From Eledone cirrhosa (taxonomy: Eukaryota): a stretch of DNA of 64,000 nt. Both the position numbers and the translations under genes were made by a program. The notes under the pieces were generated by a model. The model saw only the letters and a list, made by a program, of their open reading frames with translations, was not told where the DNA came from and ran no database searches. Of the stretch, positions 1,452-64,000 are shown piece by piece (positions within the stretch are counted from its first letter, which is position 1; every line of letters begins with the position of its first letter). The DNA lies in NCBI GenBank assembly GCA_964016885.1, contig OZ024741.1, positions 232,190,001-232,254,000 of the forward strand, in the 5' to 3' direction.

Positions 1452-3456
1452 CACTGGTCAACAAGTATTTTACATCAAGCATATGTCAGGGTGTACTTAG
1501 TGAAATTGTTAATGCTCATTTCAAATATACAATTAGTTTTACATCACGTACAGTTTTCAAGATGAGAAAGTATTTTGGTTTTAGCTCAAGCATTATATAG
1601 AAATTCAAATTAATGACGTATATCAATGTATATTATTTACATCATGGAAACATCTCTTTAAAATAAACTACATGATTCATTGCTGCATATTTCAGATGCA
1701 ATATTTCATCATCTTAAATTAACCAATTAAGTTTTGTCTGATGAAATAGATATTTCAACATCTCAAATTATCCAGTCATAATTGGTCTGATGAAATATTT
1801 CATCATCTCAAATTCAATATAAGTATAACCGTTTGTATCTATTTCCTTACTTCTTTTACAGTGCTAACAATGTCAAGACAGTGTAGAAATCGTCCTGATG
1901 TGCTCTGTTATGTCTGTGGACAATTTATTGCGAAAGCTCAAAAATGTACAATAACACCAGAGATCAAGAAGATTTATAAGCTATACGTTGACTGTCCTCT
2001 TGGAGATCAGGACAAGTTATGGGTACCACAACCACATTTTATCTGCCCAGCTTGCTCAAATGGCTTACGTGATTGGTTCAATAAGTAGAAGTCCGTGCCT
2101 TTTGCCATTCCAATGATATGGAGGGAGCCGAAATACCATTTTAATGACTGTTATTTTTGCAAAGTAAAAGTTACAGGATGTTCTATGAAGAATAAACACA
2201 AAATTATGCATCCCATTTTGGATTCTGCAATGAGAACTGAACCTCACAATGGACGTCGGCTTATTCCAGTTCCACCAAATGATGGTATTCAAACATCAGA
2301 TGATGATGCTGACTGTGACGATGGTGCTGCTGTGGAAGATTACGTGGCTGATGACGATAGCTTTGAACCTCAGAAATTTTCCCAAGCTGAACTGAATGAC
2401 CTTGTCAGAGACCTATCCCTCTCAATAGATAAAGCAGAACTGTTGGCATCAAGACTGGCGTAGAAGTATCTGCTAGAGCACGGTGTTCGTATAACTTATT
2501 TTCGGCAGAGAAATTCTACAAACGTTTTTCTCTGTTGAAGGCCCGCTTTGCTTTTGCAGTATCATCGATGGACACTTTTCGAATATTTAGCACAAAATCA
2601 TGATCCTGTAGAGTGGCGTTTGTGTATTGACTCTTCAAAACGAAGTTTAAAAGTGGTACTTCACCATAATGGTAATCTGAAGCCCCACCCCCACCCCTTT
2701 TCCTATTGCACACTTCGTTCATCTTCATGAATCATATGAGAATATAGAACTTTTATGTCATGCCTATGAATGATACTCATGAAAAATATGTGGAGATTTA
2801 AAAGTCATTGGAATGTTAATGTGAATGCAGTCACGTTTCACAAAATACTGTTGTTTCTTTTCTCTATGGTATAGTCGGGCAACTGACAGACAAGAACATC
2901 ATACAATCCAGGACTGTCTAGCGTCAAGAATACACCTCTTCTAGATCCATGTAATGTCTTATTGCCTCCTTTGCACATAAAGCCTGGACTGATGAAACAG
3001 TTTATAAAGAATAAAAATGCTATGCTAGAGCTATGGAGAAAGAGACCTAGGCTTCTGGAATGACAGTATGCTGGCTGACTACTGCCAGTCACTTTACCGT
3101 GATCAACCAGATCAGTAACACCGCAGGAAATCCCAATCACAATGTTTCTAACTCTGTTGTTCTAACTTTGTCTGTGTCTTTCTGACCCATTTTTTGGTGT
3201 AATCACTCTTTGTACAATGATAGTCATGATTTTTAACTCAATAAATTTATTTAGTTTCTAAAAATAATATGTCCTTATTTATTACGTTAATGATTTCATA
3301 CATACAAATATGTCAATATTTGTATGTATCTACTGAAGAGCTGATACGTGGTGCATACAAATGTAGTGAACATTTGAAATCAGCATGAAACATTAGTCTA
3401 AAATACTTGGTTTGCATACATAATGAGTATAATACATTTAATTTTGTTGACCAGTG
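1452..3456 (+). mobile_element. Chapaev3-like (CMC superfamily) DNA transposon, decayed
   Basis: TIRs CACTGGTCAACAA (1452) and TTGTTGACCAGTG (ends 3456); flanks TAA/TCA resemble a degenerate 3-bp TSD; internal broken transposase. Confidence 0.8.
1870..3010 (+). pseudogene. Chapaev3-type transposase remnant
   Basis: CRNRPDVLCYVCG...LGDQDKLW...MPFAIPMIWREPKYHFNDCYFC...FSQAELNDLVRDLSLS...WRLCIDSSKRSLKVVL; stops and frameshifts. Confidence 0.8.
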
Positions 3457-3942: not shown

Positions 3943-4140
3943 AGTGGAGGATGCAAGGCTTTTATCTTTCTATTAACTCAGGTCCTAATGGTGAGCTAGT
4001 AACAATGTTTGAAAGTAAAGAGGATGAACACTTAGAAGGACGCATCCCCATTAGATTTGATAAACCATACCTAGCGGATACTGTCACCATCACTAATCTC
4101 CGCGGTCGTATACTTTCTTTGTGTGAAGTTGAGGTTTTAG
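3943..4140 (+). CDS. Host receptor gene, internal exon: C-terminal half of an F-type lectin / F5-8 type C (galactose-binding-like) domain
   Basis: Acceptor ttctattaacag, donor G|gtgagt, phase 1-1, 198 nt; WRMQGFYLS...TVTITNLRGRILSLCEVEVLG matches the LxLCEVEV end of these domains. Upstream exons not found in the window. Confidence 0.8.
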
Positions 4141-5191: not shown

Positions 5192-5200
<9 letters not shown>

Positions 5201-5604
5201 TAAAAGGAAAAGAAAATGCTGACAAATTGTTCCCAGTGAAAAATAGTTTAATTAGGAATAAGTAAAAATTAGTAATAGTATTGGTTAGTATTCAGTTTTG
5301 GTTTTAAGTTTTACCGGTTGCGCATTTCTAATGCTTTTCAAAAATAATTTTGAGATAGAGCGCCCGTGATGTTTGCTCTAATCTGCATGTGTCTATGTGT
5401 CTGTGCGTGTCAGATTAGAGCAAACATCACGGGCGCTCTATCTCAAAATTAATTTTGAAAAGCATTAGAAATGCGCAACCGGTAAAGCTTAAAACCAAAA
5501 CTGAATACTAACCAATACTATTACTAATTTTTGTTTATTCCTAATTAAACTATTTTTCACTGGGAACAATTTGTCAGCATTTTCTTTTCCTTTTACCAAT
5601 ATAT
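5192..5604. repeat. Near-perfect long inverted repeat (194-bp arms, 25-bp spacer)
   Basis: 5192-5385 is the reverse complement of 5411-5604 with few mismatches; sits in the (TA)n tract upstream of EGF exon 1. Confidence 0.95.
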
Positions 5605-5696: not shown

Positions 5697-5840
5697 AATG
5701 TAAACCCGGATTTTACGGATATTTGTGTGAAATTAATTGTACAGATTGTATAAATACGGCATGTGAAAGTTATTATGGTCTCTGTGATATTGGTTGTAAA
5801 AATGGCTTACCTTGGGATGACGCAATTAAAAGATGTCCAA
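5697..5840 (+). CDS. EGF/MEGF-like exon 1 (ECKPGFYGYLCEINCTDCINTACESYYGLCDIGCKNGLPWDDAIKRCP)
   Basis: tttcacag acceptor, gtaagt donor, 144 nt, phase 1-1, 8 Cys, open frame. Confidence 0.9.
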
Positions 5841-6344
5841 GTAAGTAATATTTTGGTTGGGAAGATATTACTTTTTACATGGTCGTTCTGTAAATGCTGT
5901 TTGTCGGAGGTGTTGGTAGAATGTAGAACGAAATGTCTTGGGGGTACTTGCTCCGTTTCTGTGTCCATCTAGGACTGGAATTGTTTAAGAATTTTGATGA
6001 AATACGTGGTGGCAATATTTGTCTCGGCATTACCAATTCTGAGGTTACATTCTAACATATCCTATCAGGGTGAATTGAGACTAAAGTTTTAACTCAGTTT
6101 ATCTCAGCCTGGCCCTTAATTGCTGTTAGCAGAGTTTATTCTCTTACAAGAATTTGAACATGCCTCTGGTTTCACGATACATTCATTTGTATAACAAGTC
6201 AACTTAGTGACAGGTAAACTTAATCCTTCTCCCAGTTAACAAAAGTCCATGATTTTTTGCTTTCCATTGCGCCTGATCTTCTTCGTAAAGGTAACTCCCA
6301 ACTTAATCTTGTAAGTCCGGGAAACCCTGACATGGCTGACGGAC

Positions 6345-6535
6345 TCTGGTGGATTGGCAGTATCGTTAGAGGGTCGGACGCCATGCTTTGACGCATATAG
6401 TTACAGCCCTTGCCATTCAGAGTTCAAATTCCGCCAAGGTTAACTTTGCCTTTCATCCTTACGGGGTCGATAAAATAAAGTACCAGTAATGCACTGGGTA
6501 ATTGCTGGCCTTGTGCCAAAAGTAGAAACAATTAT
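6345..6535 (+). mobile_element. tRNA-derived SINE (OK-like)
   Basis: A-box-like TGGCAGTATCG, B-box GAGTTCAAATTCC, conserved body ...CCTTTCATCCTTACGGGGTCGATAAAATAAAGTACCAG. Confidence 0.85.
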
Positions 6536-7169
6536 TTGATTAAGCGAAAAGAAGAAATATTTGTTACAAAACATAGCTTACAAAGAGAGCACTCCAGAAA
6601 TCCTCACTATGACAATTACAAGGTCATCTCCTATTAAAAGCAATACACTCTACTTGCATCATACAATTTAGCATATATAGTACATAGAGACGCTAAACCT
6701 AGTAAAATAGACGCTAATTAAATGTATCACCAGCTGAAATTCGGTCTGCTCCTATTTAGTTGCATCTTGGAGACGTTCAAGTCATCACTATAGTCGAAAG
6801 TCGTTAATCTGGTAGACGGAAAATACGGTCAGCCAGGTAGAACGTTCGTTTCGCCATTTTTACTTGCAGTGGTATAGTATACAATCCTTAAATTACTAAA
6901 TATTAGAGATAACTTCTCTAAACATTTGTTTTTTGATTACAATTCACTTATACGATGCGTTCCAACTTACATACATTTTTAAATTTTATATTACTAACCA
7001 TATACAATAATAGATTACGCATAATACTATACATATTTACTTTAAAAATATAATTACATTCACATTCTTAAATTATATGTAAAAAATGCATATATATTAT
7101 TGCTTGATCGATCTTACGCTCATTTATAATTCTATGTCTATATATATAATTAAATAAGATCTATATTCA

Positions 7170-7865
7170 GGCATAATCATTTATGTACCATGTACACGAA
7201 CATGCTAGACAACAACATGACGGTAACATAGACAACATTGTAATTAGAATAATATCTAAACATAGAAATGACCCAGCAGATAGGCAAATCAGAGAGGCCA
7301 GTGAAATAGAAATTAGAAGACCAAGACTAAACAGAAAGAATGAATGGAATAACAACAACAACCATACAACACTGACCTAAGAGAAGTATAAATAAGTAAA
7401 TAAAATAAAATAAATAAATACATACACAAGCACAATAACAACAAGCACATAAACACACACTAGTCACCCATCACACAGCAAACAAAACACTATACACACA
7501 CGCAAACGCATGCGCAAAGAAGACAAAATAAAATAAACAAACAAGCAAATATATAAATAAATATATAGACAGAGTGAAGAAAAATGGCGTAGACATACCA
7601 CACAACAGGAGGAAACGATAACACCACTGACGATGCTGCAGATGTGCAACGAAAGATTTATGATAAACTATATATATGTGTTTGTGTCTATATTGTATCT
7701 GTATTATTTTTGACCGTCGGTCAGTCAATGGCAACATTGAGGACCGAGTAAGTTAGATTACCGATATAAAAGACACACAAGCGAAAAGCGAAACCCAACC
7801 AAACAGTGAGTGTGTTCTGTTATTAATTCTGGCAATATTACACAAATATGACCCTCCCCAAGTAT

Positions 7866-7870
<5 letters not shown>
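7170..7870 (+). mobile_element. Penelope-like fragment (C-terminus of GIY-YIG endonuclease plus 3' repeat)
   Basis: HARQQH...RQIREASEIEIRRPRLNRKNEW resembles the GIY-YIG C-terminus also seen at 51420-51730; its 3' part resembles the reverse complement of 54640-54930. Confidence 0.6.
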
Positions 7871-7924
<54 letters not shown>

Positions 7925-7946
7925 AGTTGTGTATGCTCTTTCGTAG

Positions 7947-8090
7947 GTTGCGAACACGGATTTTATGGATATAAGTGTGAAAAGAAATGTATAGATTGTA
8001 TAGACATGTCATGTGAAACTGATTATGGTGAATGTCTCAAAGGTTGTAACATAGGTATGGATTGGGATGACAAAACTAAAAGATGTAAAG
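7947..8090 (+). CDS. EGF/MEGF-like exon 2 (CEHGFYGYKCEKKCIDCIDMSCETDYGECLKGCNIGMDWDDKTKRCK)
   Basis: ctttcgtag acceptor, gtaagt donor, 144 nt, phase 1-1, open frame. Confidence 0.88.
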
Positions 8091-9709
8091 GTAAGTGAAA
8101 TTTTCGTGGTGAAGATATTACTTTTTACCTGGTCCTCCTATAAACGATGTGTGTCGGCAATGTTGTTAGAGTGTAGAACAAAATGTCTTAGGGTACTTGT
8201 TCCGTTTTCTGCATCCATCTAGGACTGGAATTGTTTTAAAATGTTCATGATATGTGTGGTGGCTATATTTATCTCGGCATTACTCATTCTGAGCTTACGT
8301 TCCAATATATCCTATTAGGTTAACGTGAGACGTAACATTTCACTCTGTTTATCTCAACCTGGCACCTGGTTGTTTTTTGGAGGAGTTTATTCTCTTACAA
8401 GTATTTGCATAAGTCTCTGGTTTGATAATAAATTCATTGGTATAATAAGTCAACTTAGTGATAGTTAAACTTAATCTACTCTCTTAACAAAAGTCCCTAT
8501 TTTTTTTTGGGGGGGGGGGGGCTTTACGGCTGATATTCATTGTAAGGATAACATACAACTTAATATTGTAAGTGCGGGAAACCATGACATGTATCATGGG
8601 CTCTTTCCGTCATGCTTTGATTGAGAGAAAAGAGAAAAAATATGTGGCAAACTAATGCTTATCAAGAGGGCTCCCCAGAAATCATCATTCTCATAATAAA
8701 CTTTTTATCTTCTTTTGAAAGAAATACACTTTACTGGCATCATACAATTTAACATGATTAACACATAGAGTCGCTAAACCTAGTAACTTAGACGCTAATT
8801 AAATGTATCACCATCTGAAATCCGGTCTGCTCCTATCTCAGTTGCATCTTGGAGACGTTCAAGTCATCAGTATTGTTAAATGTCGTTGATTTGGTAGATG
8901 GAAAATATGTTCAGTCAGGAAGGACATTATTTCAGCCATTTTACTTACAGTGGTTGTGATTTACTCTCCACGGAATTCCTCTATTAGTAAACTAGGTTCG
9001 CCAGGTTATCTTGTTTAATATTTCTGATGTACACTAGATAGAACACAATCAGCTTTCTGGCAATGTTTGTTGTGATTTGAGGTCGCTTTGGCATACACAG
9101 TGTAGAGAAGGGCTGGGTCGTATAGACAAATTTTAACATCTGCGCTCATAGTTGATGCTGCGCAAACAAAGCGCATTCACAGGAACACCTTCACGGCCTC
9201 ACCAATACTGCTGATGACGTCCAGTTTTATTGTTGCTATTGTTGGAATACTTCATGCGGTTTCCTAATTTTTGTTGTTGCACACCATAGTCAACTAACCC
9301 AATATTTAGCTGCTACAGATTTGAACTGTTTTCTGTTAAATAGCGAAGTTTACAGACTTTCTCTCCATGGAATTATTTGGCTGGTTCCTCCATGTGACTG
9401 CGTGTCTGTGTGTGTTGGTAAATATATGAGTTTTCAATTGTTATTTAGTAAAGTTTTCGCGCTTGTTTCGTCATGCGCTATCCCTTTGAAAGACAGTATT
9501 TTATAAATCGCTTTATGGTCCAGAGAAAGCTGACGTGGTTTGTGTGCATCTGACAGCCACCTTCTCCCGAAAATCCTTCAGTATTATGAACTTTGGCGTG
9601 AGCTGACCTTATATTGTGCCCGAAAGCTTTCCCCTCTAACACTGTAAAGCTTCAATCGGAGGTAATTCGTATGTATATATTTATGATAGTTGCGTATTCT
9701 CTTTCATAG

Positions 9710-9853
9710 AATGCAAACCCGGATATTACGGATTGAACTGTGTACATAATTGTTCAGATTGTATAGACATGTCATGTGGAAATGTTAATGGTGAGTGTCA
9801 CCTTGGTTGTAAGCCAGGAAAGCAATTGGATCTAGATTCTAGTAAATGTAAAG
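9710..9853 (+). CDS. EGF/MEGF-like exon 3 (ECKPGYYGLNCVHNCSDCIDMSCGNVNGECHLGCKPGKQLDLDSSKCK)
   Basis: ctttcatag acceptor, gtaagt donor, 144 nt, phase 1-1, open frame. Confidence 0.88.
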
Positions 9854-11400
9854 GTAAGTGAAATTTTCGTTGGGAAGATCTTACTTTTTAACTGGTCATT
9901 CAATAAATACTGTGTGTCGGAAGTGTTGTTAGAGTGTAGGACAAAATGTCTTTGGGTACTTGTTCCGTTTTCTGTATCCATCTAGGACTCAAATTGCTTA
10001 AGGATTTGGACGACATTTGTGGTGGCAATATTTGTTTGGTTTTACGCATTCGGAGCTTACATTCCAATAAATCCTATTAGAATAAAGTGATAAGTAGACT
10101 TTCACCCCGTACATCTCAACCCCGCTCTTAGTTGCTTTTAGCAGAGTTTATTCTCTTGCAATTAATTGAACATGGCTCTGGGTTGAAGATACATTCATTG
10201 GTATGACTAGTCAACTTAATGAGAGTTAAACTAAATCCTTCTCTAGGATAACAAAAGTCCCTGATTTTTTTAGTTTGTTTGCGGCTATTCTAATCTGTAA
10301 TGATAAATTACAACTTAATCTTGTCCGGTAAACATCGACATAGATGATGGGCTCTATCCTTCATGCTTTGATTAAGCGAAAAGAAGAAAAATATGTGGCA
10401 AATAGCTTATAAAGAGGGCTCCTCAGAAATCATCTCTCTGATAATATAATTCTCATCTTCTTTCGAAAGCAATAGACTTTACTTGCATCATACTATTTAG
10501 CATACATAATACATAGAGACGCTAATACTAGTAAAATAGACACTAATTAAATGCATGGCCAGCCGAAATTTGGTCAGCTTTTATATCTGTTGCATTATGT
10601 CTTTGATCTGTTAGACGGAAAATACGTTCAGCCAGGTAGAACCTTCGTTCCGCCATTTTACTTAGAACGATTGCGATTTGCTCTCCACGGAATTTTTTTT
10701 ATTTTTAAACGCGGTTTGCCAGTTGATCTTTTGTAATCTTTCTCAGCCAAAATTGATGGAGCACATTCAGCTTTCTGGAAATCTTTGCTGTTTTCAGGTC
10801 GCTTTAGCATACACAGTTGTGTGGAGAACGACTGTGTCGTAGAGACAAAGTTTGACCCTGAGCAAACAAAGCGCATACATTGAAATACCATCACAGCCTT
10901 TCCAATACTGCTGATGACGTGCAGTTCATTGTTGCTTTTGTTGGATCACTTCACTGCGGCTTCATTAAATGGTGCGGTTTCCCACCATCAGCAACTAACC
11001 CAATATTTTGCTGCTGCAGATGTGAACTAGTTCCTGATATTAAGGCGATGTTGACAGACTTGTGTGTGCTCTACATGGAATTCATTTGCTGGTTACACCA
11101 TGACCGTGCGTGTTGGTGCATATATGAGTTTTTAATTGTAATTAAGCAAAAGTTTCGCGCTGGATTAGGCATACGCAATCCATTTGAAAGACACTATATT
11201 ATACATCCGTTTATTGTACGGGGAACGCTGAAGTGGCTTGTGGCAGCCTCCTCTACTGGAAAACCCTCAGTAATCATGAACTTTGACATAAGTTGATTTT
11301 TATTGTGCCCGAAAGCTATCCCTTCTAACATTGCAAATCTTCAATCCTAGGATATCTATATATGTATATGTTTGTGATAAATGTGTATTCTCTTTCACAG

Positions 11401-11544
11401 ACTGCCCACCCGGATATTACGGATTGAAGTGTGCAAATAATTGTACAGATTGTATAGACATGGAATGTGAGAATTATATTGGTAAATGTGTAAAAGGTTG
11501 TCTCAAAGGTATGGGTTGGGATGACGAAATTGAAAGATGTGAAG
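11401..11544 (+). CDS. EGF/MEGF-like exon 4 (DCPPGYYGLKCANNCTDCIDMECENYIGKCVKGCLKGMGWDDEIERCE)
   Basis: ctttcacag acceptor, gtaagt donor, 144 nt, phase 1-1. Confidence 0.9.
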
Positions 11545-13124
11545 GTAAGTGAAATTCTCGTTGGGAAGATATTACTTTTTATCTTGTGGTTCTATAAATG
11601 ATGTGTCGGAGGTGTTGGTAGAGTGTAGAACAAAATGTATTGGTGTACTTGTTCCATTTTCTGTAACCTTCTACGACTGGAATTGTCTGATAATTTTGAT
11701 GACATGCGTGGTGGCTATATTTGTCTCGGAATTACGCATTCTGAGCTTCACATTCCAATATATCGTATTAGGGTAAAGTGAGACGTCAAATTTCACTCCG
11801 TTTTTCTCACCCTCGCCCTTGGTTGTTTTTTGAGGAGTTTATTCTCTTACAAGTATTTGAATAAGTCTCTGGTTTGAAGATAAATTCATTGGTATTCCAA
11901 GTCAACTTAGTGATAGTTAAATTTAATCCTCTCTGTTAACAAAAGTCCCTGATTTTGTTTAGTTACTTTGCGGCTCATCTTCACTGTAAGGATAACATAC
12001 AACTTAATCTTGTAAGTCCGAGAAATCATGACATGGATCATGGGCTCTATCCTTCATGCTTTGATTAAGCGAAAAGAAGAAAAATATGTTGCAAACCATA
12101 GTTTATCAAACGGTTCCCCCAAAATCATCAATCTGATAATATAATTTTCATCTCCTTTTGACAATTTAGCATAATTAACACATAGAGTCGCTAAACCTAG
12201 TAACAGATACTAATTAAATGTATCTCCATCTGAAATTCGGCCTGGTTCTATTTCAGTTGCATCTTGGAGACGTTCAAGTCTTCACTATTGTTAAATGTCG
12301 TTGATTTGGTAGATGGAAAATATGGTCAGCCAGGAAGAACCTTATTTCAGCCATTTTACTTATAGTGGTTGTGACTTTCTCTCCACGGAATTCTTCTATT
12401 AGTAAACTAGGTTCGCCAGATTATCTTGTTTAATATTTCTGAGGTACACTTGATAGAACACATTCAGCTTTCTGGAATTCCTTGCTGAGATTTCAGATCG
12501 CTTTGGCATACACAGTGTGGAGAAGGGCTGGGTCGTATAGACAAAGTTTGACATCTGCGCTCATAGTTGAGGCTGAACAGACAAAGCGAATTCACTGGAA
12601 CACCTTCATCGCCTCACTAATTCTGCTGATGACGTCCAGTTTTATTGTTGCTATTGTTGGATAACTTCACTGCGGCATCCTAATTGTTGCTGTTGCCCAC
12701 CATTTTCAACTAACTCAATATTTAGCTGCTACAGACCTGAACTGTTTTCTGCTAAGTTAGCAAAATTTACAGACATTCTCTCTATGTTTTTCATTGGCTA
12801 GTTCCACCATGTGTCTGCATGTTTGTGTGTGTTGATGCATATTTGAGTTTTCAATTGTTATTTATTAAAGTTTTCGCGCTTGTTTAGTCATACGCTATCC
12901 CTTTGAAATACAGTATTTCATAAATCGTGTTATGGTCTAGAGAACACTGAAGAGGTGTGTGTGTATTCTACAGCCCACTTCTCACGAAAATCCCTCAGTA
13001 TTATTAATTTTGACGTGAGTTGACCTTTTATTGTGTCCGAAATCTATCGCTTCTAACCTTGCAAAGGTTCCATCGTAGGTTGTTTATATATATATTTATG
13101 ATAGTTGTGTATTCTCTTTCACAG

Positions 13125-13268
13125 GATGCAAACCCGGATATTACGGATTGGAATGTGCAGAACGTTGTACAGATTGTGAAGACATGGCATGTGATAAGTA
13201 TACTGGTAAATGTGAAAAAGGTTGTATCAGCGGTATGGTTTGGGATGACGTAATTAAAAGATGTGTAG
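13125..13268 (+). CDS. EGF/MEGF-like exon 5 (GCKPGYYGLECAERCTDCEDMACDKYTGKCEKGCISGMVWDDVIKRCV)
   Basis: ctttcacag acceptor, gtaagt donor, 144 nt, phase 1-1. Confidence 0.9.
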
Positions 13269-13278
13269 GTAAGTGAAA

Positions 13279-13404
13279 TTACGGATATATGTGTGAATAT
13301 AATTGTAGATTGTCTAATCATCTCATGTGGAAGTTTTAATGGTGAGTGTCACCTTGGTTGTAAGTTAGGAAAGGAATAGGATAAAACTTTTAGTAAATGT
13401 AAAG
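13279..13404 (+). pseudogene. Dead EGF exon copy (exon-3 type) lacking its acceptor
   Basis: Begins about 10 nt after the exon 5 donor; 5' end and acceptor deleted; frameshift and a TAG; donor gtaagt retained. Confidence 0.85.
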
Positions 13405-14957
13405 GTAAGTGAAATTTTCGTTGGGAAGATCTTACTTTTTAACTGGTCACTCAATAAATACTGTGTATCGGAAGTGATGTTAGAGTGTAGGACAAAATGT
13501 CTAGGGGTACTTGTTCCGTTTTCTGTATCCTTATAGGACTGAAATTGCTTAAGGATTTGGACGACATTTGTGGTGGCAATATTTGTCTGGGCTTTACGCA
13601 TTCTGAGCTTACATTCCAATATATCCTATTAGAATAAAGTGATAATTAGACTTTCAGCTCGGTTATCTCAACTCGGCCCCTGGTTTCTTTCAGTAATTAT
13701 TTGAACATGGCTCTGGGTTGAAGATACATTCATTGGTATGACTAGTCAACTTAATGAGAGTTAAACTAAATCCTTCTCTAGGATAACAAAAGTCCCTGAT
13801 TTTTTTAGATTGTTTGCGGCTAATCTACTCTGTAATGATAAATTACAACTTAATCTTGTCCGGTAAACATCGACATAGATGATGGGCTCTATCCTTCATG
13901 CTTTGATTAAGCGAAAAGAAGAAAAATATGTGGGAAATAGCTTATAAAAAGGGCTCCTCAGAAATCATCTCTCTGATAATATAATTCCCATCTTCTTTTG
14001 AAAACAATAGACTTTACTTGCATCATACTATTTAGCATACATATTACATAGAGACGCTAATACTAGTAAAATAGACACTAATTAAATGCATGGCCAGCCG
14101 AAATTTGGTCAGCTTTTATATCTGTTGCATTATGTCTTTGATCTGTTAGACGGAAAATACGGTCAGCCAGGTAGAACCTTCGTTCCGGCATTTTACTTAG
14201 AACGATTGCGATTTGCTTTCCACGGCATTTTTTTTTATTTTTAAACGCGGTTCGCCAGTTGATCTTTTGTAATCTTTCTCAGCCAAAATTGATGGAGCAC
14301 ATTCAGCTTTCTGGAAATCTTTGCTGTGTTTTCATGTCGCTTTAGCATACACAGCTGTGTGGAGAACGACTGTGTCGTAGAGACAAAGTTTGACATCTGC
14401 ACACATAGTTGACCCTGAGCAAACAAAGCGCATACATTGAAATACCATCACAGCCTTTCCAATTCTACTGATGACGTGCAGTTCATTGTTGCTTTTGTTG
14501 GATCACTTCACTGCGGCTTCATTAAATGGTGCGGTTTCCCACCATCAGCAACTAACCCAATATTTTGCTGCTGCAGATGTGAACTAGTTCCTGATATTAA
14601 GGCGATGTTGACAGACTTGTGTGTGCTCTACATGGAATTCATTTGCTGGTTACACCATGACCGTGCGTGTTGGTGCATATATGAGTTTTTAATTGTAATT
14701 AAGCAAAAGTTTCGCGCTGGATTAGGCATACGCAATCCATTTGAAAGACACTATATTATACATCCGTTTATTGTACGGAGAACGCTGAAGTGGCTTGTGG
14801 CAGCCTCCTCTACTGGAAAGCCCTCAGTAATCATGAACTTTGACATAAGTTGATTTTTATTGTGCCCGAAAGCTATCCCTTCTAACATTGCAAAGCTTCA
14901 ATCCTAGGATATCTATATATGTATATGTTTGTGATAAATGTGTATTCTCTTTCACAG

Positions 14958-15101
14958 AATGCCCACCCGGAAATTACGGATTGGAGTGTGCAAATATATG
15001 TATAGATTGTGTAGGTGTGGAATGTGATAGTTATATTGGTAAATGTGAAAATGGTTGTTTCGAAGGTATGGGTTGGGATGACGAAATTAAAAGATGTGGA
15101 G
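14958..15101 (+). CDS. EGF/MEGF-like exon 6 (ECPPGNYGLECANICIDCVGVECDSYIGKCENGCFEGMGWDDEIKRCG)
   Basis: ctttcacag acceptor, gtaagt donor, 144 nt, phase 1-1. Confidence 0.9.
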
Positions 15102-15869
15102 GTAAGTGAAATTTTCGTTAAGATATTACTTTTTACTTGGTCGTTCTATAAATGCTGTGTGTCGGAGGTGTTGGTAGAGTGTAGAACAAAATGTCTTGGG
15201 GTACTTGTTCTATATTCTGTAACCATCTAGGACTGGAATTGTTTAAGAATTTTGCCGACATGAATGGTGGCTCTATTTGTCTCGGCATTACGCATTCTGA
15301 GCTTACATTCGAATATATTATATTAGGGTAAAGTGAGACGTCATATTTCACAGCTGTGTGGAAAACGATTGTGTCCTATAGACAAAGTATGACATCTACA
15401 CTCATATTTGAGCCTGAGAAAACAAAGCGCATTCACTGGAACACGTTCACAGCCTTTCCTATTCTGTTGATGACGGTCAGTTCATTGTTGCTATTGTTGG
15501 ATCACTTCACCGTGGCTTCCTAAATGGTGCTGTTGCCCACGATCAACAAATAACCCAGACTTGAATGTTCTCTCCATGGAATTCATTGGCTTGTTCCACC
15601 ATGCCCGTCCGTGTCTATGTGTGTTGGTGCATATATAGGTTTTTCATTGTAATTTAGGAAAACATAACGCTTGTATATGCATAGGCAATTTAATTTGTAC
15701 ATCGATTTTTAGTCTAGAGTAAGCTGACGAGGTTTGTTTATATCTGACAGACTCCTCTCGAAAAACGCTCAATAATTATGAAATTTGACCGTTGACCTTT
15801 TATTGTGCTCGAAATCTATCCACAGTAACATTTCAAAGCTTTCATCGGAGGGTCTCTGTATATATATAT

Positions 15870-17304
15870 ATATATAAACAATGAGTTATTTGGTTTGTTG
15901 ATTATTCAACAAAATTAATTTTACAATAGATTAGAAGCACTCAACAGTTTTATCCGGAGCATCATTAATATCAATGATATTAATAAATGGAAAATATCTT
16001 TATAGGACCATATTTATTTTACTATACGTATTTCAAGGTTACCTATATTTAAGGGCGCTTTGGTCAGATAAAATATAATAATTGGTGTTAAGATAGTGAC
16101 ATATCTTAATGTGAACAGCATGTTATAAGTTCAGTGAAGATAGTGAAGATAATTTTTTGTAAACTCAAGAGGAATATACTAATGAGGATAACGTTAAAAC
16201 TGAAAAGATCCGTTAATTTTAGACTAGATAAATTGAAAATATTTATATACTTTGTTAAAAAAAGTGTGCCATTAAATTTGAAAATGTTATTGTAGAGTTA
16301 TTTTTAAAATAATTATTTAGTACATAAAGTATTATGCGTGAATATAGATCTTATTTATGTATATATATAGAAATAGAATTATAAATGACCGTAAGATAGA
16401 TCAAGCAATAATATATATGCATTTTTTACATATACTTTAAGAATGTGAAAGTAATTATATTTTTAAAGTAAAGATGTATAGTATTATATATAATCTATTA
16501 TTGTATATGTTTAGTAATATAAAATTTAAACATTTATGTAAATCGAAATGTATCGTATATGTGAATTGTAAACAAAACCATCTTTTAAGGGAAGATAATA
16601 CTAATATTTAGTAATTCAAGGAATCTACACTATAGATATGTAAAATATATTGTTTTATCTAATGTTTAACATAATAATTAATTTTAATTTATATTATAAG
16701 ATAAGTAAACATTTCTATACGAGTTTAGAGCACCATATAGTAAATATGGTGTTGATAATAATAAATAATTAAATATGTATATGTATAAACTTTGATAATA
16801 ATAAATATTTCTATGTATAAATTTGATGATAAGAAATATTTCTATGTATACATTTAAGAACATTTAAAGACAACCAAAAATATATACTGTACATAGGCAA
16901 CCTATATAGACCATACTGTAGTAGCTTCTATGTATTATAAATATTCTGAAATGTTCTGAAGAATCGATGCAAACAAGAATTAAATATTTCTCTTTTTTTT
17001 TTTGTTAATAATATTACCAGGATTGGTAATGATATGAAAGATTTCTTCAATACAGAGATGACAAATTCTTGAGAGAGCCATATTTTAGTAAAGTGGTAAA
17101 ATGCATCGATTCTCCAGAACATTTCACAATATTTATAATTAGGTTAAACATTAGATAAAACAATATATTTTTAAATATCCATACTATACATTCCTTAAAT
17201 TACTAAATATTAGAGTTACCTTCCCTTTAAATATTTTTTGTTTACAATTCACATATACGATACGTTCCAACATACATAAATGTTTAAATTTTATATTACT
17301 AAAC
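15870..17304. mobile_element. AT-rich inserted repeat with internal inverted repeats (unclassified, possibly Penelope-derived)
   Basis: Interrupts a duplication unit at its (TA)n tract; about 16505-16670 is inverted at 17140-17303; about 16332-16630 is inverted at 6875-7176. Confidence 0.55.
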
Positions 17305-17896
17305 ATGTCATATAGACAAAGTTTGACATCTGCGCTCATAGTTGAGGCTGAACAAACAAACCGCATTCACTGGAAAACATTCAGCGCCTCACCAATACTG
17401 CTGATGACGTCCAGTTTTATTTTCCTATTGTTGGAATACTTCACGCGGCTTCCTAATTGTCGTTGTTGCCCACCATTGTCAACTAACCCAATATTTAGCT
17501 TCGGATGTGAACCCTTTTCTGCTAAGATGGCGTAGTTTACGGACTTTCTCTCCATGGAATTCATTGGCTAGTTTCACCATGTGTCTGCATGTCTGTGTGT
17601 ATTGGTGCATATATGAGTTTTCAATTGTTATTTAGCAAAGTTTTCGCGCTTGTTTAGTCATACGGTATCCCTTTGAAAACAGTATTTTATAAATCGTGTT
17701 ATGGTCTAGAAAAAGCTGAAGAGGTGTGTGTGTATCTGCAGCCTCATTTTCCCGAAAATCCTTCAGTATTATGATCTTTGAAGTGAGTTGACCTTTTATT
17801 GTGCCCGAAAGCTATCCCTTCTAACCTTGCAAAGCTTCCATCGTAGGATATCTGTATATATATATATTTATGATAGTTGTGTATTCTCTTTCACAG

Positions 17897-18040
17897 AATG
17901 CAAACCCGGATATTACGGATTCAACTGTGCAAATAATTGTACAGATTGTGTTGACAGGGTATGTGATAAGTATATTGGTAACTGTGAAAAAGGTTGTATC
18001 AGCGGTATGATTTGGGATGAAGAATTTATAAGATGTGTAG
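17897..18040 (+). CDS. EGF/MEGF-like exon 7 (ECKPGYYGFNCANNCTDCVDRVCDKYIGNCEKGCISGMIWDEEFIRCV)
   Basis: ctttcacag acceptor, gtaagt donor, 144 nt, phase 1-1. Confidence 0.9.
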
Positions 18041-18050
18041 GTAAGTGAAA

Positions 18051-18179
18051 TTACGGATATATGTGTGAATATGATTGTACAGATTGTCTAAATATGTCAT
18101 GTGGAAATGTTTAATGGTGAATGTCACCTTGGTTGTAAGATAGGAAAGGAATGGGACGTAGATTTTAGTAAATGTAAAG
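18051..18179 (+). pseudogene. Second dead EGF exon copy lacking its acceptor
   Basis: Same fused junction GTAAGTGAAATTACGGA as at 13269; +1 frameshift (GTT TAA); donor degraded to gtaaat. Confidence 0.85.
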
Positions 18180-19366
18180 GTAAATGAAATTTTCGTTGAG
18201 AAGATCTTACTCTTTAACTGGTCGTTCAATAAAGGCTGTGTGACGGAAATGTTGTGAGAGTGTAGAACAAAATTATTGGTGGGGGGGGGGGGGGGGGGGT
18301 GAGTGTTCCGTTTTCTGTATCAATCTAGGACTGAAATTATTTAAGGATTTTGTCGACATGCGTGGTGGCAATATTTGTCTCGGAATTACGCATTCTGAGA
18401 TTACATTCCAATATATCCTATTAGAGTAAAGTGATAATTAGACTTTCACCCTGTTTATCTCAACCCGGCCCATGGCTTCTTTTAGCAGATTTTATTCTCT
18501 TGCAATTATTTGAACATGGCTCTGGTTTGAAGATACATTCATTGGTATAACAAGTCAACAGAAAATACGATAAGCTAGGTAGAACATTCGTTACGCCATT
18601 TTACTTAGAACGATTGTGATTTTCTCTCCACGGCATTTTTTTATTTGTAAACGAGGTTCACCAGTTGATCTTGTGAAATATTTCTGGGCCAACTTTGATG
18701 AAGCACATTTAGCTTTCTGGAAATATTTGCTGTGTTTTCATGTCGCTTTAGTATACACAGCTGTGTGGAGAACGACTGTCACGTATAGACAAAGTTTGAC
18801 GCCTGCACTCATATTTGAGCCTGATCAAAGAAAGCGCATTCACAGGAAAACCTTCACAGCCTTTCCAATTCTGCTGATGACGTGCAGTTCATTGTTGCTT
18901 TTGTTGGTTCACTTCACTGCGGCTTCATTAAATGGTGGTGTTTCCCTCCATCACCAACTAACCCAATATCTTGCTGCCACAATTTTGAACAAGTTCCCGC
19001 TATTAAGGCGATGTTGACAGACTTGTGTGTTCTCTCCATGGAATTCATTTGCTGGTTCCACCATGACCGTGCGTGTTGGTGCATAAAGAAGGTTTTACTT
19101 GTAATTTAGCACAATTTTTGCGCTAGATTAGGCATACGCACTCCCTTTGAAAGACACTATTTTGTACATCAGTCTATGACCCGGAGAACGCTGAAGCGGC
19201 CTGTGGCAGCCTCCTACTCCCAGAAAACCCTCAGTAATCATGAACTTTCACATAATTTAATTTTTGTTAATCCCGAAATCTATCCCTTCTAACCTTGCAA
19301 AGCTTCCATCGTAAGATATCTATATATGTATATATATTTACGATAAATGTGTATTCTCTTTCACAG

Positions 19367-19510
19367 GATGCCCACCCGGATATTACGGATTCAAGTGTGT
19401 AAATAATTGTACAGATTGTTTATACATGAAATGTGATATTTTTATTGGTAAATGTGAACAAGGTTGTATCGAAGGTATGATTTGGGATGACGAAATTGAA
19501 AGATGTCAAG
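19367..19510 (+). CDS. EGF/MEGF-like exon 8 (GCPPGYYGFKCVNNCTDCLYMKCDIFIGKCEQGCIEGMIWDDEIERCQ)
   Basis: ctttcacag acceptor, gtaagt donor, 144 nt, phase 1-1. Confidence 0.9.
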
Positions 19511-30354: not shown

Positions 30355-30445
30355 TGTCAAATTCCGCGGCTATGGTGAAGATATTTGTAATTGGATTGTT
30401 GCTGATCCTCTGTCTCCTTGGAATGGGGTTAATGTACTTATTCTG
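30355..30445 (+). CDS. Host receptor gene, transmembrane exon (VSNSAAMVKIFVIGLLLILCLLGMGLMYLFW)
   Basis: ttctctttgatcag acceptor, TG|gtatgt donor; phase 1 in (matches the EGF exons), phase 2 out; hydrophobic stretch of about 22 aa. Confidence 0.8.
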
Positions 30446-31469: not shown

Positions 31470-31671
31470 GAAGAAAAGACGCGGAGTAATGGAAGGAGAA
31501 GAAGAAGAAGAAGAAGAATGGGACGATGAAGAAGAAGAGGAAGAAGAAGAACATGATGAAGAAAAAGAAGTTGAAGAAGAAAAAGAAAAAGAAAAAGAAG
31601 AAGAAAAAGAAAAAGAAAAAGAAGAAGAAAAAGAAAAAGAAGAAGAAGACGGAGGAGAATCAACACATTAA
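31470..31671 (+). CDS. Host receptor gene, terminal exon: WKKRRG stop-transfer signal and Glu/Lys-rich cytoplasmic tail
   Basis: gtttcag acceptor; phase-2 join TG+G gives Trp, then KKRR directly after the TM helix; in frame with ORF 31489-31671 to TAA. Confidence 0.8.
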
Positions 31672-31810: not shown

Positions 31811-32974
31811 TAATTGTTTAGTCCCTGTTATTTTATACATGTTTTATATTTTTCCAAAATATCATAGAAGTCAATTGATACACATTGTAGATAATAAGGA
31901 CACCACCATATGGAATTGAATGAGGCCGGCATCCTTTTGAGGAACAAGTGTACTGCCATATGTTGGCACTATCTTGTGGGATGAGACACAATATTGCGTA
32001 CATAGACACACACACATACTTATGCATATACACATAATCGCGTGTGTATATATCCTACCAGAGGCATCCGGTGTTGCCCGGGGATGAAATTGTTCCTTAT
32101 ATATTAAAAGAAAGAAGCAAAATATGTTGTATAGAAAGTTATTATTCTAAATTCAATTTATTCTTCAAGTGGTATAAATGATGAAATCAATTCTGAATTG
32201 ATAATACAAGATAAAAAAAATACAAAACTTACCACTTTTATGAAGCGAGATAAATTCAATCCCATAGAAGGAAATTATGCAAGAGCTTCTGGGTAAACAT
32301 CATTCTTCGTTTTCTGGTTTAGTGTATACACAAATACGTATTTTAAACTACCCACCCTGGATCAACCAACATAAAGTTGACCATGAGTTAACGCAAGGCT
32401 CAATTAAGTGCAAACCAGTAGATTTCAAAGTCTGACCTTGACGGTTATTGATTGACATTGCGAAGAAAATCGCAATGGGAATTTTGTTGGTTTGAACTCA
32501 AATGTCATGTCTGTTGGTTTCATTGGAATTCATGGAATGAAAATATCTTCTTCAGAGGCACATCCAGTGATGATTGTAGCTTCTATCACATTATGTGATA
32601 ATTTCTTCGCAATCAACCTTGTCTCATTACATAATTTAGAAGAATCTAAATTTCTTAGAAGCATTATTGGGACTTATACCTTAAGAAAAATGTTTATGTT
32701 GAGGAATTCCAGTGGCCCAAGTGAATTAAGGAAGTCTTTTGGTTAGTGGACAACTTGATTTTCATCGAGGAATTAATCAACTGATTAGTACTCCAATATG
32801 ATTGTTGGAATCTTATTCATTAATTCATGGTTAATGCTTGCTATTCTCTCGTTTTTATTTAGCAAGAATTGCCCTTTCACAAAACCATTTATGTGAATTA
32901 TAATTATTACTGAAGTTTGGAAATACGCTGTCCTTCAATTCAGCTGTGGGGATTTACCATGATGATAATTGTTT

Positions 32975-59505: not shown

Positions 59506-59583
<78 letters not shown>

Positions 59584-59722
59584 ATATTAAATAAATGGTA
59601 GCTATATTTATAAAACCATATTTATTTTGTTATATATATTTCAAGGGTACCACAATATTTTGGTACGCTTTCTACAGATGAAATACAAAGTTTGTTTCAT
59701 AAATAGAGACATAACCAGGAAA

Positions 59723-62700
59723 ATCATACCTTATCTGTTGGATATTCTCTGTATAGTATCATACCTTATCAATTAGATATTCTCTGTATAGTATCATACC
59801 TTATCAGTTAGATATTCTCTGTATAGTATCATACCTTATCAGTTAGATATTCTCTGGATAGTATCATACCTTATCAGTTGGATATTCTCTGGATAGTATC
59901 ATACCTTATCAGTTGGATATTCTCTGGATAGTATCATACCTTATCAGTTGGATATTCTCTGGATAGTATCATACCTTATCAGTTGGATATTCTCTGGATA
60001 GTATCATACCTTATCAGTTGGATATTCTCTGAATAGTATCATACCTTATCAGTTCGATATTCCCTGGATAGTATCATACCTTATCAGTTAGATATTCTCT
60101 GTATAGTATCATACCTCATCAGTTAGATATTCTCTGGATAGTATCATACCTTATCAATTAGATATTCTCTGTATACTATCATACCTTATCAGTTGGATAT
60201 TCTCTGGATAGTATCATACCTTATCAGTTGGATATTCTCTGTATAGTATCATGCCTTATAAGTTGGATATTCTCTGGATAGTATCATACCTTATCAGTTG
60301 GATATTCTCTGGATAGTATCATGCCTTATAAGTTGGATATTCTCTGGATAGTATCATACCTTATCAGTTGGATATTCTCTGAATAGTATCATACCTTATC
60401 AGTTAGATATTCTCTGGATAGTATCATACCTTATCAGTTAGATATTCTCTGTATAGTATCATACCTTATCAGTTGCATATTCTCTGGATAGTATCATACC
60501 TTATCAGTTGGATATTCTCTGGATAGTATCATACCTTATCAGTTGGATATTCTCTGTATAGTATCATACCTTATCAGTTAGATATTCTCTGTATAGTATC
60601 ATACCTTATCAGTTAGATATTCTCTGGATAGTATCATACCTTATCAGTTGGATATCCTCTGGATAGTATCATACCTTATCAGTTGGACATGTTCTGGATA
60701 GTATCATACCTTATCAGTTGGATATTCTCTGTATAGTATCATACCTTATCAGTTGGACATTTTCTGGATAGTATCATACCTTATCAGTTGGATATTCTCT
60801 GGATAGTATCATACCTTATCTGTTGGATATTCTCTGGATAGTATCATACCTTATCAGTTGGATATTCTCTGTATAGTATCATACCTTATCAGTTGGATAT
60901 TCTCTGGATAGTATCATACCTTATCAGTTGGATATTCTCTGTATAGTATCATACCTTATCAGTTAGATATTCTCTGTATAGTATCATACCTTATCAGTTA
61001 GATATCTTCTGGATAGTATCATACCTTATCAGTTGGATATTCTATGTATAGTATCATACCTTATCAGTTGGATATTCTCTGGATAGTATCATACCTTATC
61101 AGTTAGATATTTTCTGGATAGTATCATACTTTATCAGTTGGATATTCTCTGGATAGTATCATACCTTATCAGTTGGATATTATCTGGATAGTATCATACC
61201 TTATCAGTTGGATATTCTCTGTATAGTATCATACCTTATATGTTGGATATTCTCTGGATAGTATCATACCTTATCAGTTGGATATTCTCTGGATAGTATC
61301 ATACCTTATCAGTTGGATATTCTCTGGATAGTATCATACCTTATCAGTTAGATATTTTCAGGATAGTATCATACCTTATCAGTTGGATATTCTCTGGATA
61401 GTATCATACCTTATCAGTTCGATATTCTCTGGATAGTATCATACCTTATAAGTTGGATATTCCATGGATAGTATCATACCTTATCAGTTAGATATTCCAT
61501 GGATAGTATCATACCTTATCAGTTAGATATTCTCTGGATAGTATCATACCTTATCAGTTAGATATTCTCTGGATAGTATCATACCTTATCAGTTGGATAT
61601 TCTCTGGATAGTATCATACCTTATCAGTTGGATATTCTCTGGATAGTATCATACCTTATCAGTTGGATATTCTCTGGATAGTATCATACCTTATCAGTTA
61701 GATATTCCATGGATAGTATCATACCTTATCAGTTAGATATTCTCTGGATAGTATCATACCTTATCAGTTAGATATTCTCTGGATAGTATCATACCTTATC
61801 AGTTGGATATTCTCTGTATAGTATCATACCTTATCAGTTGGATATTTTCTGGATAGTATCATACCTTATCAGTTGGATATTCTCTGGATAGTATCATACC
61901 TTATCAGTTGGATATTCTCTGTATAGTATCATACCTTATCAGTTGGATATTCTCTGGATAGTATCATACCTTATCAGTTGGATATTCTCTGGATAGTATC
62001 ATACCTTATCAGTTGGATATTCTCTGTATAGTATCATACCTTATCAGTTAGATATTCTCTGTATAGTATCATACCTTATCAGTTAGATATTTTCTGGATA
62101 GTATCATACCTTATCAGTTGGATATTCTCTGAATAGTATCATACCTTATCAGTTAGATATTCTCTGGATAGTATCATACCTTATCAGTTAGATATTCTCT
62201 GTATAGTATCATACCTTATCAGTTAGATATTCTCTGGATAGTATCATACCTTATCAGTTAGATATTCTCTGTATACTATCATACCTTATCAGTTGGATAT
62301 TCTCTGGATAGTATCATACCTTATCAGTTGGATATTCTCTGTATAGTATCATGCCTTATAAGTTGGATATTCTCTGGATAGTATCATACCTTATCAGTTG
62401 GATATTCTCTGGATAGTATCATGCCTTATAAGTTGGATATTCTCTGGATAGTATCATACCTTATCAGTTGGATATTCTCTGAATAGTATCATACCTTATC
62501 AGTTAGATATTCTCTGGATAGTATCATACCTTATCAGTTAGATATTCTCTGTATAGTATCATACCTTATCAGTTGGATATTCTCTGTATAGTATCATACC
62601 TTATCAGTTGCATATTCTCTGGATAGTATCATACCTTATCAGTTGGATATTCTCTGGATAGTATCATACCTTATCAGTTCGATATTCTCTGGATAGTATC

Positions 62701-64000
62701 ATACCTTATAAGTTGGATATTCCATGGATAGTATCATACCTTATCAGTTAGATATTCCATGGATAGTATCATACCTTATCAGTTAGATATTCTCTGGATA
62801 GTATCATACCTTATCAGTTAGATATTCTCTGGATAGTATCATACCTTATCAGTTGGATATTCTCTGGATAGTATCATACCTTATCAGTTGGATATTCTCT
62901 GGATAGTATCATACCTTATCAGTTGGATATTCTCTGTATAGTATCATACCTTATCAGTTGGATATTTTCTGGATAGTATCATACCTTATCAGTTGGATAT
63001 TCTCTGGATAGTATCATACCTTATCAGTTGGATATTCTCTGTATAGTATCATACCTTATCAGTTGGATATTCTCTGGATAGTATCATACCTTATCAGTTA
63101 GATATTCCATGGATAGTATCATACCTTATCAGTTAGATATTCTCTGGATAGTATCATACCTTATCAGTTAGATATTCTCTGGATAGTATCATAACTTATC
63201 AGTTGGATATTCTCTGTATAGTATCATACCTTATCAGTTGGATATTTTCTGGATAGTATCATACCTTATCAGTTGGATATTCTCTGGATAGTATCATACC
63301 TTATCAGTTGGATATTCTCTGTATAGTATCATACCTTATCAGTTGGATATTCTCTGGATAGTATCATACCTTATCAGTTGGATATTCTCTGGATAGTATC
63401 ATACCTTATCAGTTGGATATTCTCTGTATAGTATCATACCTTATCAGTTAGATATTCTCTGTATAGTATCATACCTTATCAGTTAGATATTTTCTGGATA
63501 GTATCATACCTTATCAGTTGGATATTCTCTGAATAGTATCATACCTTATCAGTTAGATATTCTCTGGATAGTATCATACCTTATCAGTTAGATATTCTCT
63601 GTATAGTATCATACCTTATCAGTTAGATATTCTCTGGATAGTATCATACCTTATCAGTTAGATATTCTCTGTATACTATCATACCTTATCAGTTGGATAT
63701 TCTCTGGATAGTATCATACCTTATCAGTTGGATATTTTCTGTATAGTATCATGCCTTATAAGTTGGATATTCTCTGGATAGTATCATACCTTATCAGTTG
63801 GATATTCTCTGGATAGTATCATGCCTTATAAGTTGGATATTCTCTGGATAGTATCATATCTTATCAGTTGGATATTCTCTGAATAGTATCATACCTTATC
63901 AGTTAGATATACTCTGGATAGTATCATACCTTATCAGTTAGATATTCTCTGTATAGTATCATACCTTATCAGTTGGATATTCTCTGTATAGTATCATACC
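59723..64000. repeat. 35-bp tandem satellite/minisatellite, about 120 copies, running off the window end
   Basis: Unit ATCATACCTTATCAGTT(G/A)GATATTCTCTG(G/T)ATAGT repeated head to tail without spacers. Confidence 0.98.

Follow-up and report, generated by a model that had tools for sequence, protein, structure and literature searches.

Amino-acid-changing divergence in a tandem array of EGF-like exons and the receptor predicted from it in Eledone cirrhosa

The analyzed window is a 64,000-nt stretch of the 3.0-Gb genome of Eledone cirrhosa (G000:C2:232190001-232254000, on contig C2), which holds a tandem array of eight epidermal growth factor (EGF)-like exons. The comparisons of sequences given below support the array as a real feature under selection, in which amino-acid change in the live copies outpaces change at silent sites and in introns. 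The array is best explained, with a probability of about 60%, as the EGF-like stalk of a single-pass surface recognition receptor from a birth-and-death family driven by parasites or pathogens. What appears new here is an acceleration of the whole protein that peaks in the transmembrane (TM) helix, in two clusters; the novelty of the TM point was weakly checked against the literature.

Selection on the EGF-like exons

The exons lie on the forward strand at 5697..5840 (exon 1), 7947..8090 (exon 2), 9710..9853 (exon 3, the type ancestral to the dead copies described below), 11401..11544 (exon 4), 13125..13268 (exon 5), 14958..15101 (exon 6), 17897..18040 (exon 7), and 19367..19510 (exon 8). They were checked for splice sites, frame, and Cys residues and subjected to codon pair counts; exon 3 was also used for the dead-copy comparison and exon 6 for the intron comparison with exon 4. 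Each exon has 144 nt, AG/GTAAG borders, an open frame, 8 Cys, and phase 1-1, in agreement with an earlier note on this DNA. Because the phase is shared across the whole array (5697-19510), any subset of exons can be skipped or spliced in frame; the dead copies retain their own donor sites.

The earlier note had held that the copies differ almost only by amino-acid-changing substitutions, and its counts were reproduced: exons 4 and 6 differ at 18 nt (15 whole codons and the intron-split codon, 16 together), exons 5 and 7 at 19 nt (14 whole codons and the split codon, 15 together), and exons 4 and 8 at 17 nt (again 14 and the split codon, 15 together), with no purely synonymous codon in any of the three. 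These pairs are the best cases, and the statement does not extend to the array overall: purely synonymous codons are absent from 8 of the 10 pairs within exons 4-8, whereas all 18 pairs including exon 1, 2, or 3 have one to three of them.

Under codon models, the ratio of non-synonymous to synonymous rates (omega) for the eight window exons was 2.6-2.8 in M0 (twice the log-likelihood difference, 2dl, from omega = 1: 7-10). M2a assigned omega 5.6-6.3 to 62-63% of sites (2dl 23-29, in all four codon-frequency models), M8 against M8a gave the same result, and 2dl remained 26.7 when double and triple hits were allowed. For 23 exons of the family, omega was 2.0-2.35 in M0 and 3.1-3.9 in M2a (2dl 40-58); this fit excludes C7, D4, and H1, which are without a homologous downstream intron, as well as C6, I1, F1, and the stop-bearing C2x, C4x, and E2x. 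In the more distant clusters, 15 canonical-type EGF exons taken from three genes (two on contig C10, one on C2) gave omega 1.9 (2dl 21-24). Introns were used as a second yardstick: the proportion of non-synonymous differences (pN) exceeded the divergence of the downstream intron in 95% of 229 exon pairs, and the mean synonymous proportion (pS) of 0.19 was near the 0.17 of the introns.

Artifacts of mutation and conversion were considered as causes. GC-biased conversion was rejected because A-T and C-G changes also occur at 2.4-6 times the intron rate; GC-neutral changes alone reach 2.4 times that rate in the EGF exons. Multi-nucleotide mutation was rejected by multi-hit models for window, family, and TM exons. 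In null simulations, 2dl did not exceed 2.4 (18/18); nine of these included tract conversion, covering one conversion regime, and produced no false positives. Omega remained above 1 under all four frequency models, and the signal survived the check for gene conversion, two points for which the earlier note had asked for correction.

Dead exon copies served as an internal neutral control. Two exon-3-type copies on the forward strand, at 13280..13404 (2-nt loss, in-frame stop) and 18052..18179 (1-nt gain), carry the frameshifts reported previously and additionally have neither a splice acceptor nor codons 1-5. Six further live/dead doublets of the same kind were found in a paralog, C. The eight dead copies gave omega 1.04 with no gain from M2a. 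Scaffold positions differ at p 0.104 in the dead copies against 0.000 in the adjacent full-length exons; the Cys/Gly scaffold is invariant in live copies and not in dead ones. The idea that the Cys codons themselves are frozen fared less well. Over the 8 Cys codons, the tree length for silent change was 1.97 (95% range 0.8-4.0) against 1.9 in introns, and preservation beyond the neutral expectation was rejected, the silent rate there being equal to the intron rate. Conservation of the amino acid together with recent ancestry accounts for the identical Cys codons, an argument made for conotoxins in PMC3823881.

The mapping of variable sites on a structure yielded little: the AlphaFold model of a single exon was poor (predicted local distance difference test 72, predicted template modelling score 0.43), the variable sites were not placed, and Foldseek found no match for this model at E 0.001. 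Short-read contigs of one sample, possibly the source sample, matched exons 1 and 3 without a difference, as they did the dead copy that follows exon 7. No exon-exon joint was present in assembled contigs among the matches listed, the kind of contig being unrecorded.

The predicted receptor and its fastest-evolving parts

Further exons were located through splice sites conserved in paralogs. An upstream EGF exon lies at about L015:1006-1150. The first half of an F-type-lectin-like domain lies upstream of the window at L014:6835-7095 (PF22633, E 8e-9, 36.4 bits against a cut-off of 27.8), and the second half (fucolectin/galactose-binding fold) at 3943..4140 on the forward strand, phase 1-1, open and splice-conserved in paralogs. 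A predicted TM exon of 91 nt (30355..30445, forward strand, phase 1-2, hydropathy 2.7 across 19 aa) keeps its splice sites and frame in paralogs, and the phases permit a direct join from exon 8. The predicted last coding exon (31470..31671, forward strand) encodes basic stop-transfer residues and a Glu/Lys-rich 66-aa tail, with the stop codon at 31669-31671; paralogs B, C, and D likewise stop in the last exon, after about 42, 10, and 3 aa. The predicted product is a type I membrane protein consisting of an EGF unit, the F-type-lectin-like domain, 8 SCARF/MEGF-type repeats, a TM helix, and a 66-aa acidic tail. From the conserved borders and phases, these exons are predicted to be spliced into one receptor, which is presumably expressed.

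F-type lectin structures were matched at E 5e-7 to 3e-3, and a repeat profile of 28 exons matched SCARF1 (E 2.9e-6) and Tie2 (E 0.03, or 0.033) over repeat positions 1-29. Pfam searches matched no EGF family with single EGF-like exons and nothing with the second lectin-half exon in 6/6 paralogs, and a homolog search using the latter exon found none. Among named proteins, the closest homologs come from Octopus; those of Octopus sinensis and O. vulgaris have the same lectin-like domain ahead of EGF repeats, and the homologs have additional N-terminal sequence. A protein tyrosine phosphatase (PTP) domain was matched in the window neither by tblastn nor by PF00102 (with only the best candidates scored for the latter), and cytosolic tandem PTP domains were rejected for the window gene, as its stop follows 66 aa after the TM helix. 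Beyond the predicted stop, at ~32165-32290, there may be a relic cytoplasmic exon, which has a Tyr close to its end and is frameshifted in paralog B. A broken coding-like stretch at 1860-3010, resembling a decayed DNA transposon, lies inside the lectin-domain intron and is ~91% shared with paralog B.

The acceleration extends past the EGF exons. Over six ectodomain exons compared between the window gene and paralog B, pN was 0.182, pS 0.071, and intron divergence 0.095 (N against intron, P 2e-9; N against S, P 2e-5; S against intron, P 0.26). M2a improved the fit for both lectin-half exons (2dl 11.6 and 18.0), the second of which (3943..4140) had omega 2.5 in M0 (2dl 18 for M2a, four paralogs). 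The TM exon was the fastest-evolving exon measured, with pN 0.41-0.45 against pS 0.11-0.22 and 0.07-0.09 in 75-85 nt of the downstream intron, and omega 7.5-7.8 in M0 (three paralogs, 2dl ~16). In the C10 cluster, nine TM exons (those of the 22 that are 91 nt long, less one from contig C2) gave omega 5.0-5.2 (2dl 18-20) at an intron tree length of 0.14. Three disjoint pairs of C10 TM exons differ at 15-24 of 91 nt, with nearby flanks 0.5-6% apart; in L045 against L046, the 15 differences change the amino acid in 10 codons and leave no codon with a purely silent change, and the flanks differ at 6/284, 3/598, and 12/692 positions. The TM helix core alone gave omega 4.8 and 8.0, and the multi-hit and GC-neutral checks hold for the TM exons. 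Silent sites are few (~26 per EGF exon and ~21 per TM exon), and the comparison covers TM exons of this family. The TM exon is also the most accelerated exon in the 16-copy C10 cluster (L034-L051), where the flanking introns are ~92-100% identical.

The window gene lies in a tandem paralog cluster. The lectin exon has seven matches on contig C2, and the TM-flanking intron has 27, of which 16 fall within a 1.4-Mb cluster on contig C10; an open hydrophobic exon in the same phase was present at all 22 TM loci that were fetched. Neither a lectin exon nor a tail exon was located in the C10 genes. Some family copies are pseudogenes (stops; one frameshift). Paralog C (described, as was F, from loci L009-L011, L005, and L028) has nine EGF exons, two of them with stops, besides its six dead doublets, and no lectin exon was found in it; in paralog F the lectin exon is frameshifted and two Gly of the scaffold are changed. 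PTP exons occur on the forward strand at G000:C2:232702416, 232727245, and 233040592, 0.5-0.8 Mb downstream, and may belong to phosphatase-bearing paralogs that would form short-tail/signalling pairs with genes such as this one.

Silent divergence, array history, and competing explanations

Silent length in exons 4-8 was 0.09 (0.01-0.27) against 0.42-0.46 in the flanking introns, a 5-fold deficit (2dl 9.1), and family-wide the silent divergence at variable codons was about half that of the introns (2dl 6.9). Either exons 4-8 are of more recent ancestry than their introns, or their silent sites are under some constraint. The array introns are mosaic. Those before exons 4 and 6 are 0-3% apart over ~1.2 kb, whereas the exons differ by 12.5% (18/144 nt). 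The near-identical tract (10154-11400 against ~13750-14957) stops at the exon 4/6 boundary, which suggests conversion or duplication that spared the exons. Exons 5 and 7 may be exon-4-type bodies within exon-3-type units. The array would have grown by unequal crossing-over and conversion, which are proposed as the reason why exons 4-8 look younger than their introns. Other sequences in the window are a 35-nt satellite (59583-64000, running on through L016; at least 118 copies in the window, ~95% identical), a repeat within the introns that resembles an octopus short interspersed nuclear element, and two inverted repeats like miniature inverted-repeat transposable elements, each with 194-nt arms that are 98% complementary (5192-5604, arms 25 nt apart, high-copy by read depth; 51210-52081, arms 484 nt apart).

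These silent-site deficits, the mosaic introns, and the scarcity of silent sites are what an explanation by no positive selection would use: the stalk and TM helix would be relaxed, and omega inflated by suppressed silent change and conversion-homogenised introns. We regard this explanation as improbable, since the silent-site and intron yardsticks would both have to fail together. Non-synonymous divergence exceeds both introns and silent sites within one gene pair (the window gene and B), the neutral length that M1a requires is 3.66, whereas the introns have 1.9, the dead copies evolve at omega close to 1, and the C10 TM exons diverge strongly between little-changed flanks. Diversifying selection between the cysteines, as claimed in the earlier note, is supported by the codon models, the intron yardstick, the dead copies, the null simulations, and the GC-neutral changes. 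It was overstated in two respects: the Cys codons are not specially frozen, and omega was inflated there because silent change is nearly absent in exons 4-8. The signal also extends beyond the EGF exons.

The recognition or immune reading of the family is preferred because its architecture matches that of snail receptors linked to resistance. An arms race with parasites or pathogens would drive amino-acid change in the live copies; with the disulfide scaffold fixed, the surface residues free to be replaced, and the number of repeats variable, each paralog or repeat could present a different surface upon the same scaffold. Given its motif-free tail, the receptor might act as a partner of phosphatase-bearing relatives, either binding them or serving as a decoy.

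Several points weigh against this reading. The codon models were run in our own code (MG94-type site models, with the F61 run GY94-type, on fixed topologies) and not in PAML or HyPhy. In the doublet subset, variable positions differ at 0.199 in full-length exons and 0.159 in dead ones, only a 1.25-fold excess, and two of the four EGF pairs between the window gene and B do not exceed introns (W1 against B1, P 0.6; W8 against B4, P 0.056). The comparison with flanking introns proposed in the earlier note gave an intron-anchored omega of 2.4 family-wide, in line with its claim, but in exons 4-8 the value fell to 1.2 overall and to 1.8 for variable codons. The 11 kb that precede the first EGF exon located yielded no signal-peptide exon. 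In the fucose-binding motif of F-type lectins, His...Arg-x-Asp-x4-Arg, the His aligns to Lys in the window gene and is variable, never His, in 5/5 aligned paralogs, which leaves a glycan ligand conjectural; membership among fucose-binding F-type lectins was rejected on this ground. Finally, a pathogen-binding role alone does not account for the TM helix being the fastest part.

That last result is better accounted for if the family is a self-recognition or cell-identity code, in which selection for exclusive self-pairing would drive the paralogs apart in both ectodomain and TM helix. Diversification covers the entire protein and is strongest in the TM exon (omega 4.8-8 in the helix core), hydrophobicity and frame are preserved in 22/22 further TM exons, the tails are short and variable, and the phase 1-1 EGF exons allow any subset to be spliced in frame. 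We still consider such a code unlikely, as the closest described relatives are linked to parasite resistance (PMC13712769 and PMC12297450); pseudogenes and copy-number turnover fit birth-and-death families of either kind. A more specific proposal, which is tentative, is that the TM helix is a selected specificity element in dozens of receptors whose cytoplasmic parts carry few if any signalling motifs. The helices would diverge to choose partners (self against paralog, or phosphatase-bearing co-receptors) or, alternatively, to escape a parasite protein attacking receptors inside the bilayer, and the freely skippable EGF cassettes might add a combinatorial code. Sexual selection on a surface protein of gamete recognition or reproduction would leave the same statistical signature, which is established for molluscan lysin/VERL. 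This origin is very improbable, given that so many diversified paralogs (~25 or more, spread over several clusters) are rather a mark of immune families, and that no relative found in the homolog searches is named as a gamete protein.

Comparison with known receptor and peptide families

The earlier note had likened the pattern to conotoxins. Conotoxins and the Mytilus MgCRP-I peptides, the latter with positive selection on a Cys scaffold, share with the array invariant Cys and positively selected inter-Cys residues, as far as the accessible parts of PMC3823881 and PMC4558851 describe them. They differ in being short secreted peptides, whereas here tandem exons belong to one predicted membrane protein whose non-Cys domains are accelerated too; the likeness therefore does not extend to the product, and membership among conotoxin-type peptides was rejected on the membrane architecture and the intron-like silent rate at Cys codons.

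The Cys pattern of the repeats is like that of SCARF1/SREC-I, the Tie2 EGF region, and MEGF10/CED-1/Draper, which differ from the window gene in that it has the F-type-lectin-like domain. A further difference is that the predicted tail of the window gene is without Tyr and therefore has no NPxY or YxxL motif. The SudRes1 MEGF/GBD receptor-type phosphatases of Biomphalaria sudanica (PMC12297450) and the bivalve MEGF10-like and receptor-type PTP proteins share this ectodomain plan, have duplicated recently, and show numerous replacement differences as well as gain and loss of EGF units (replacement differences and EGF loss being described for the SudRes1 cluster itself). The window gene differs from SudRes1 in ending 66 aa past the TM helix without a phosphatase domain. 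Another snail receptor shows an excess of replacement diversity, according to the available part of PMC10875847.

The closest likeness in architecture is with subgroup 1B of Biomphalaria, whose members have a fucolectin signature, SCARF/MEGF10-like repeats, one TM helix, and a small tail, and which in the resistance-associated LG5R cluster stand beside phosphatase-bearing 1C members (PMC13712769, in part). The window gene shows four features of this subgroup: a galactose-binding/fucolectin domain, Tie2/SCARF-type repeats, a single predicted TM helix, and a predicted small, featureless cytosolic tail. Both have clustered paralogs with fragments and phosphatase-bearing relatives nearby. The window gene differs in being from a cephalopod and in a repeat that ends in a G-x2-W-x6-C variant; the two are likened by architecture only, and the available portion of the account (PMC13712769) contains no dN/dS test or TM diversification. 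Both the LG5R 1B cluster and SudRes1 are associated with schistosome resistance in Biomphalaria, the receptor type being linked to it by mapping (PMC13712769 and PMC12297450, as excerpted). The literature search, with supplements outside its scope, returned no description of this receptor family in cephalopods.

Diversifying receptors are of a known kind in molluscs. The present analysis adds quantitative evidence for strong diversifying selection on a single-pass receptor of the lectin-fold/MEGF type in a cephalopod. It suggests that recognition receptors of this family are shared across molluscs and supplies octopus candidates for variable immune or identity receptors, in which the rapid evolution of the TM helix would come as a surprise to specialists.

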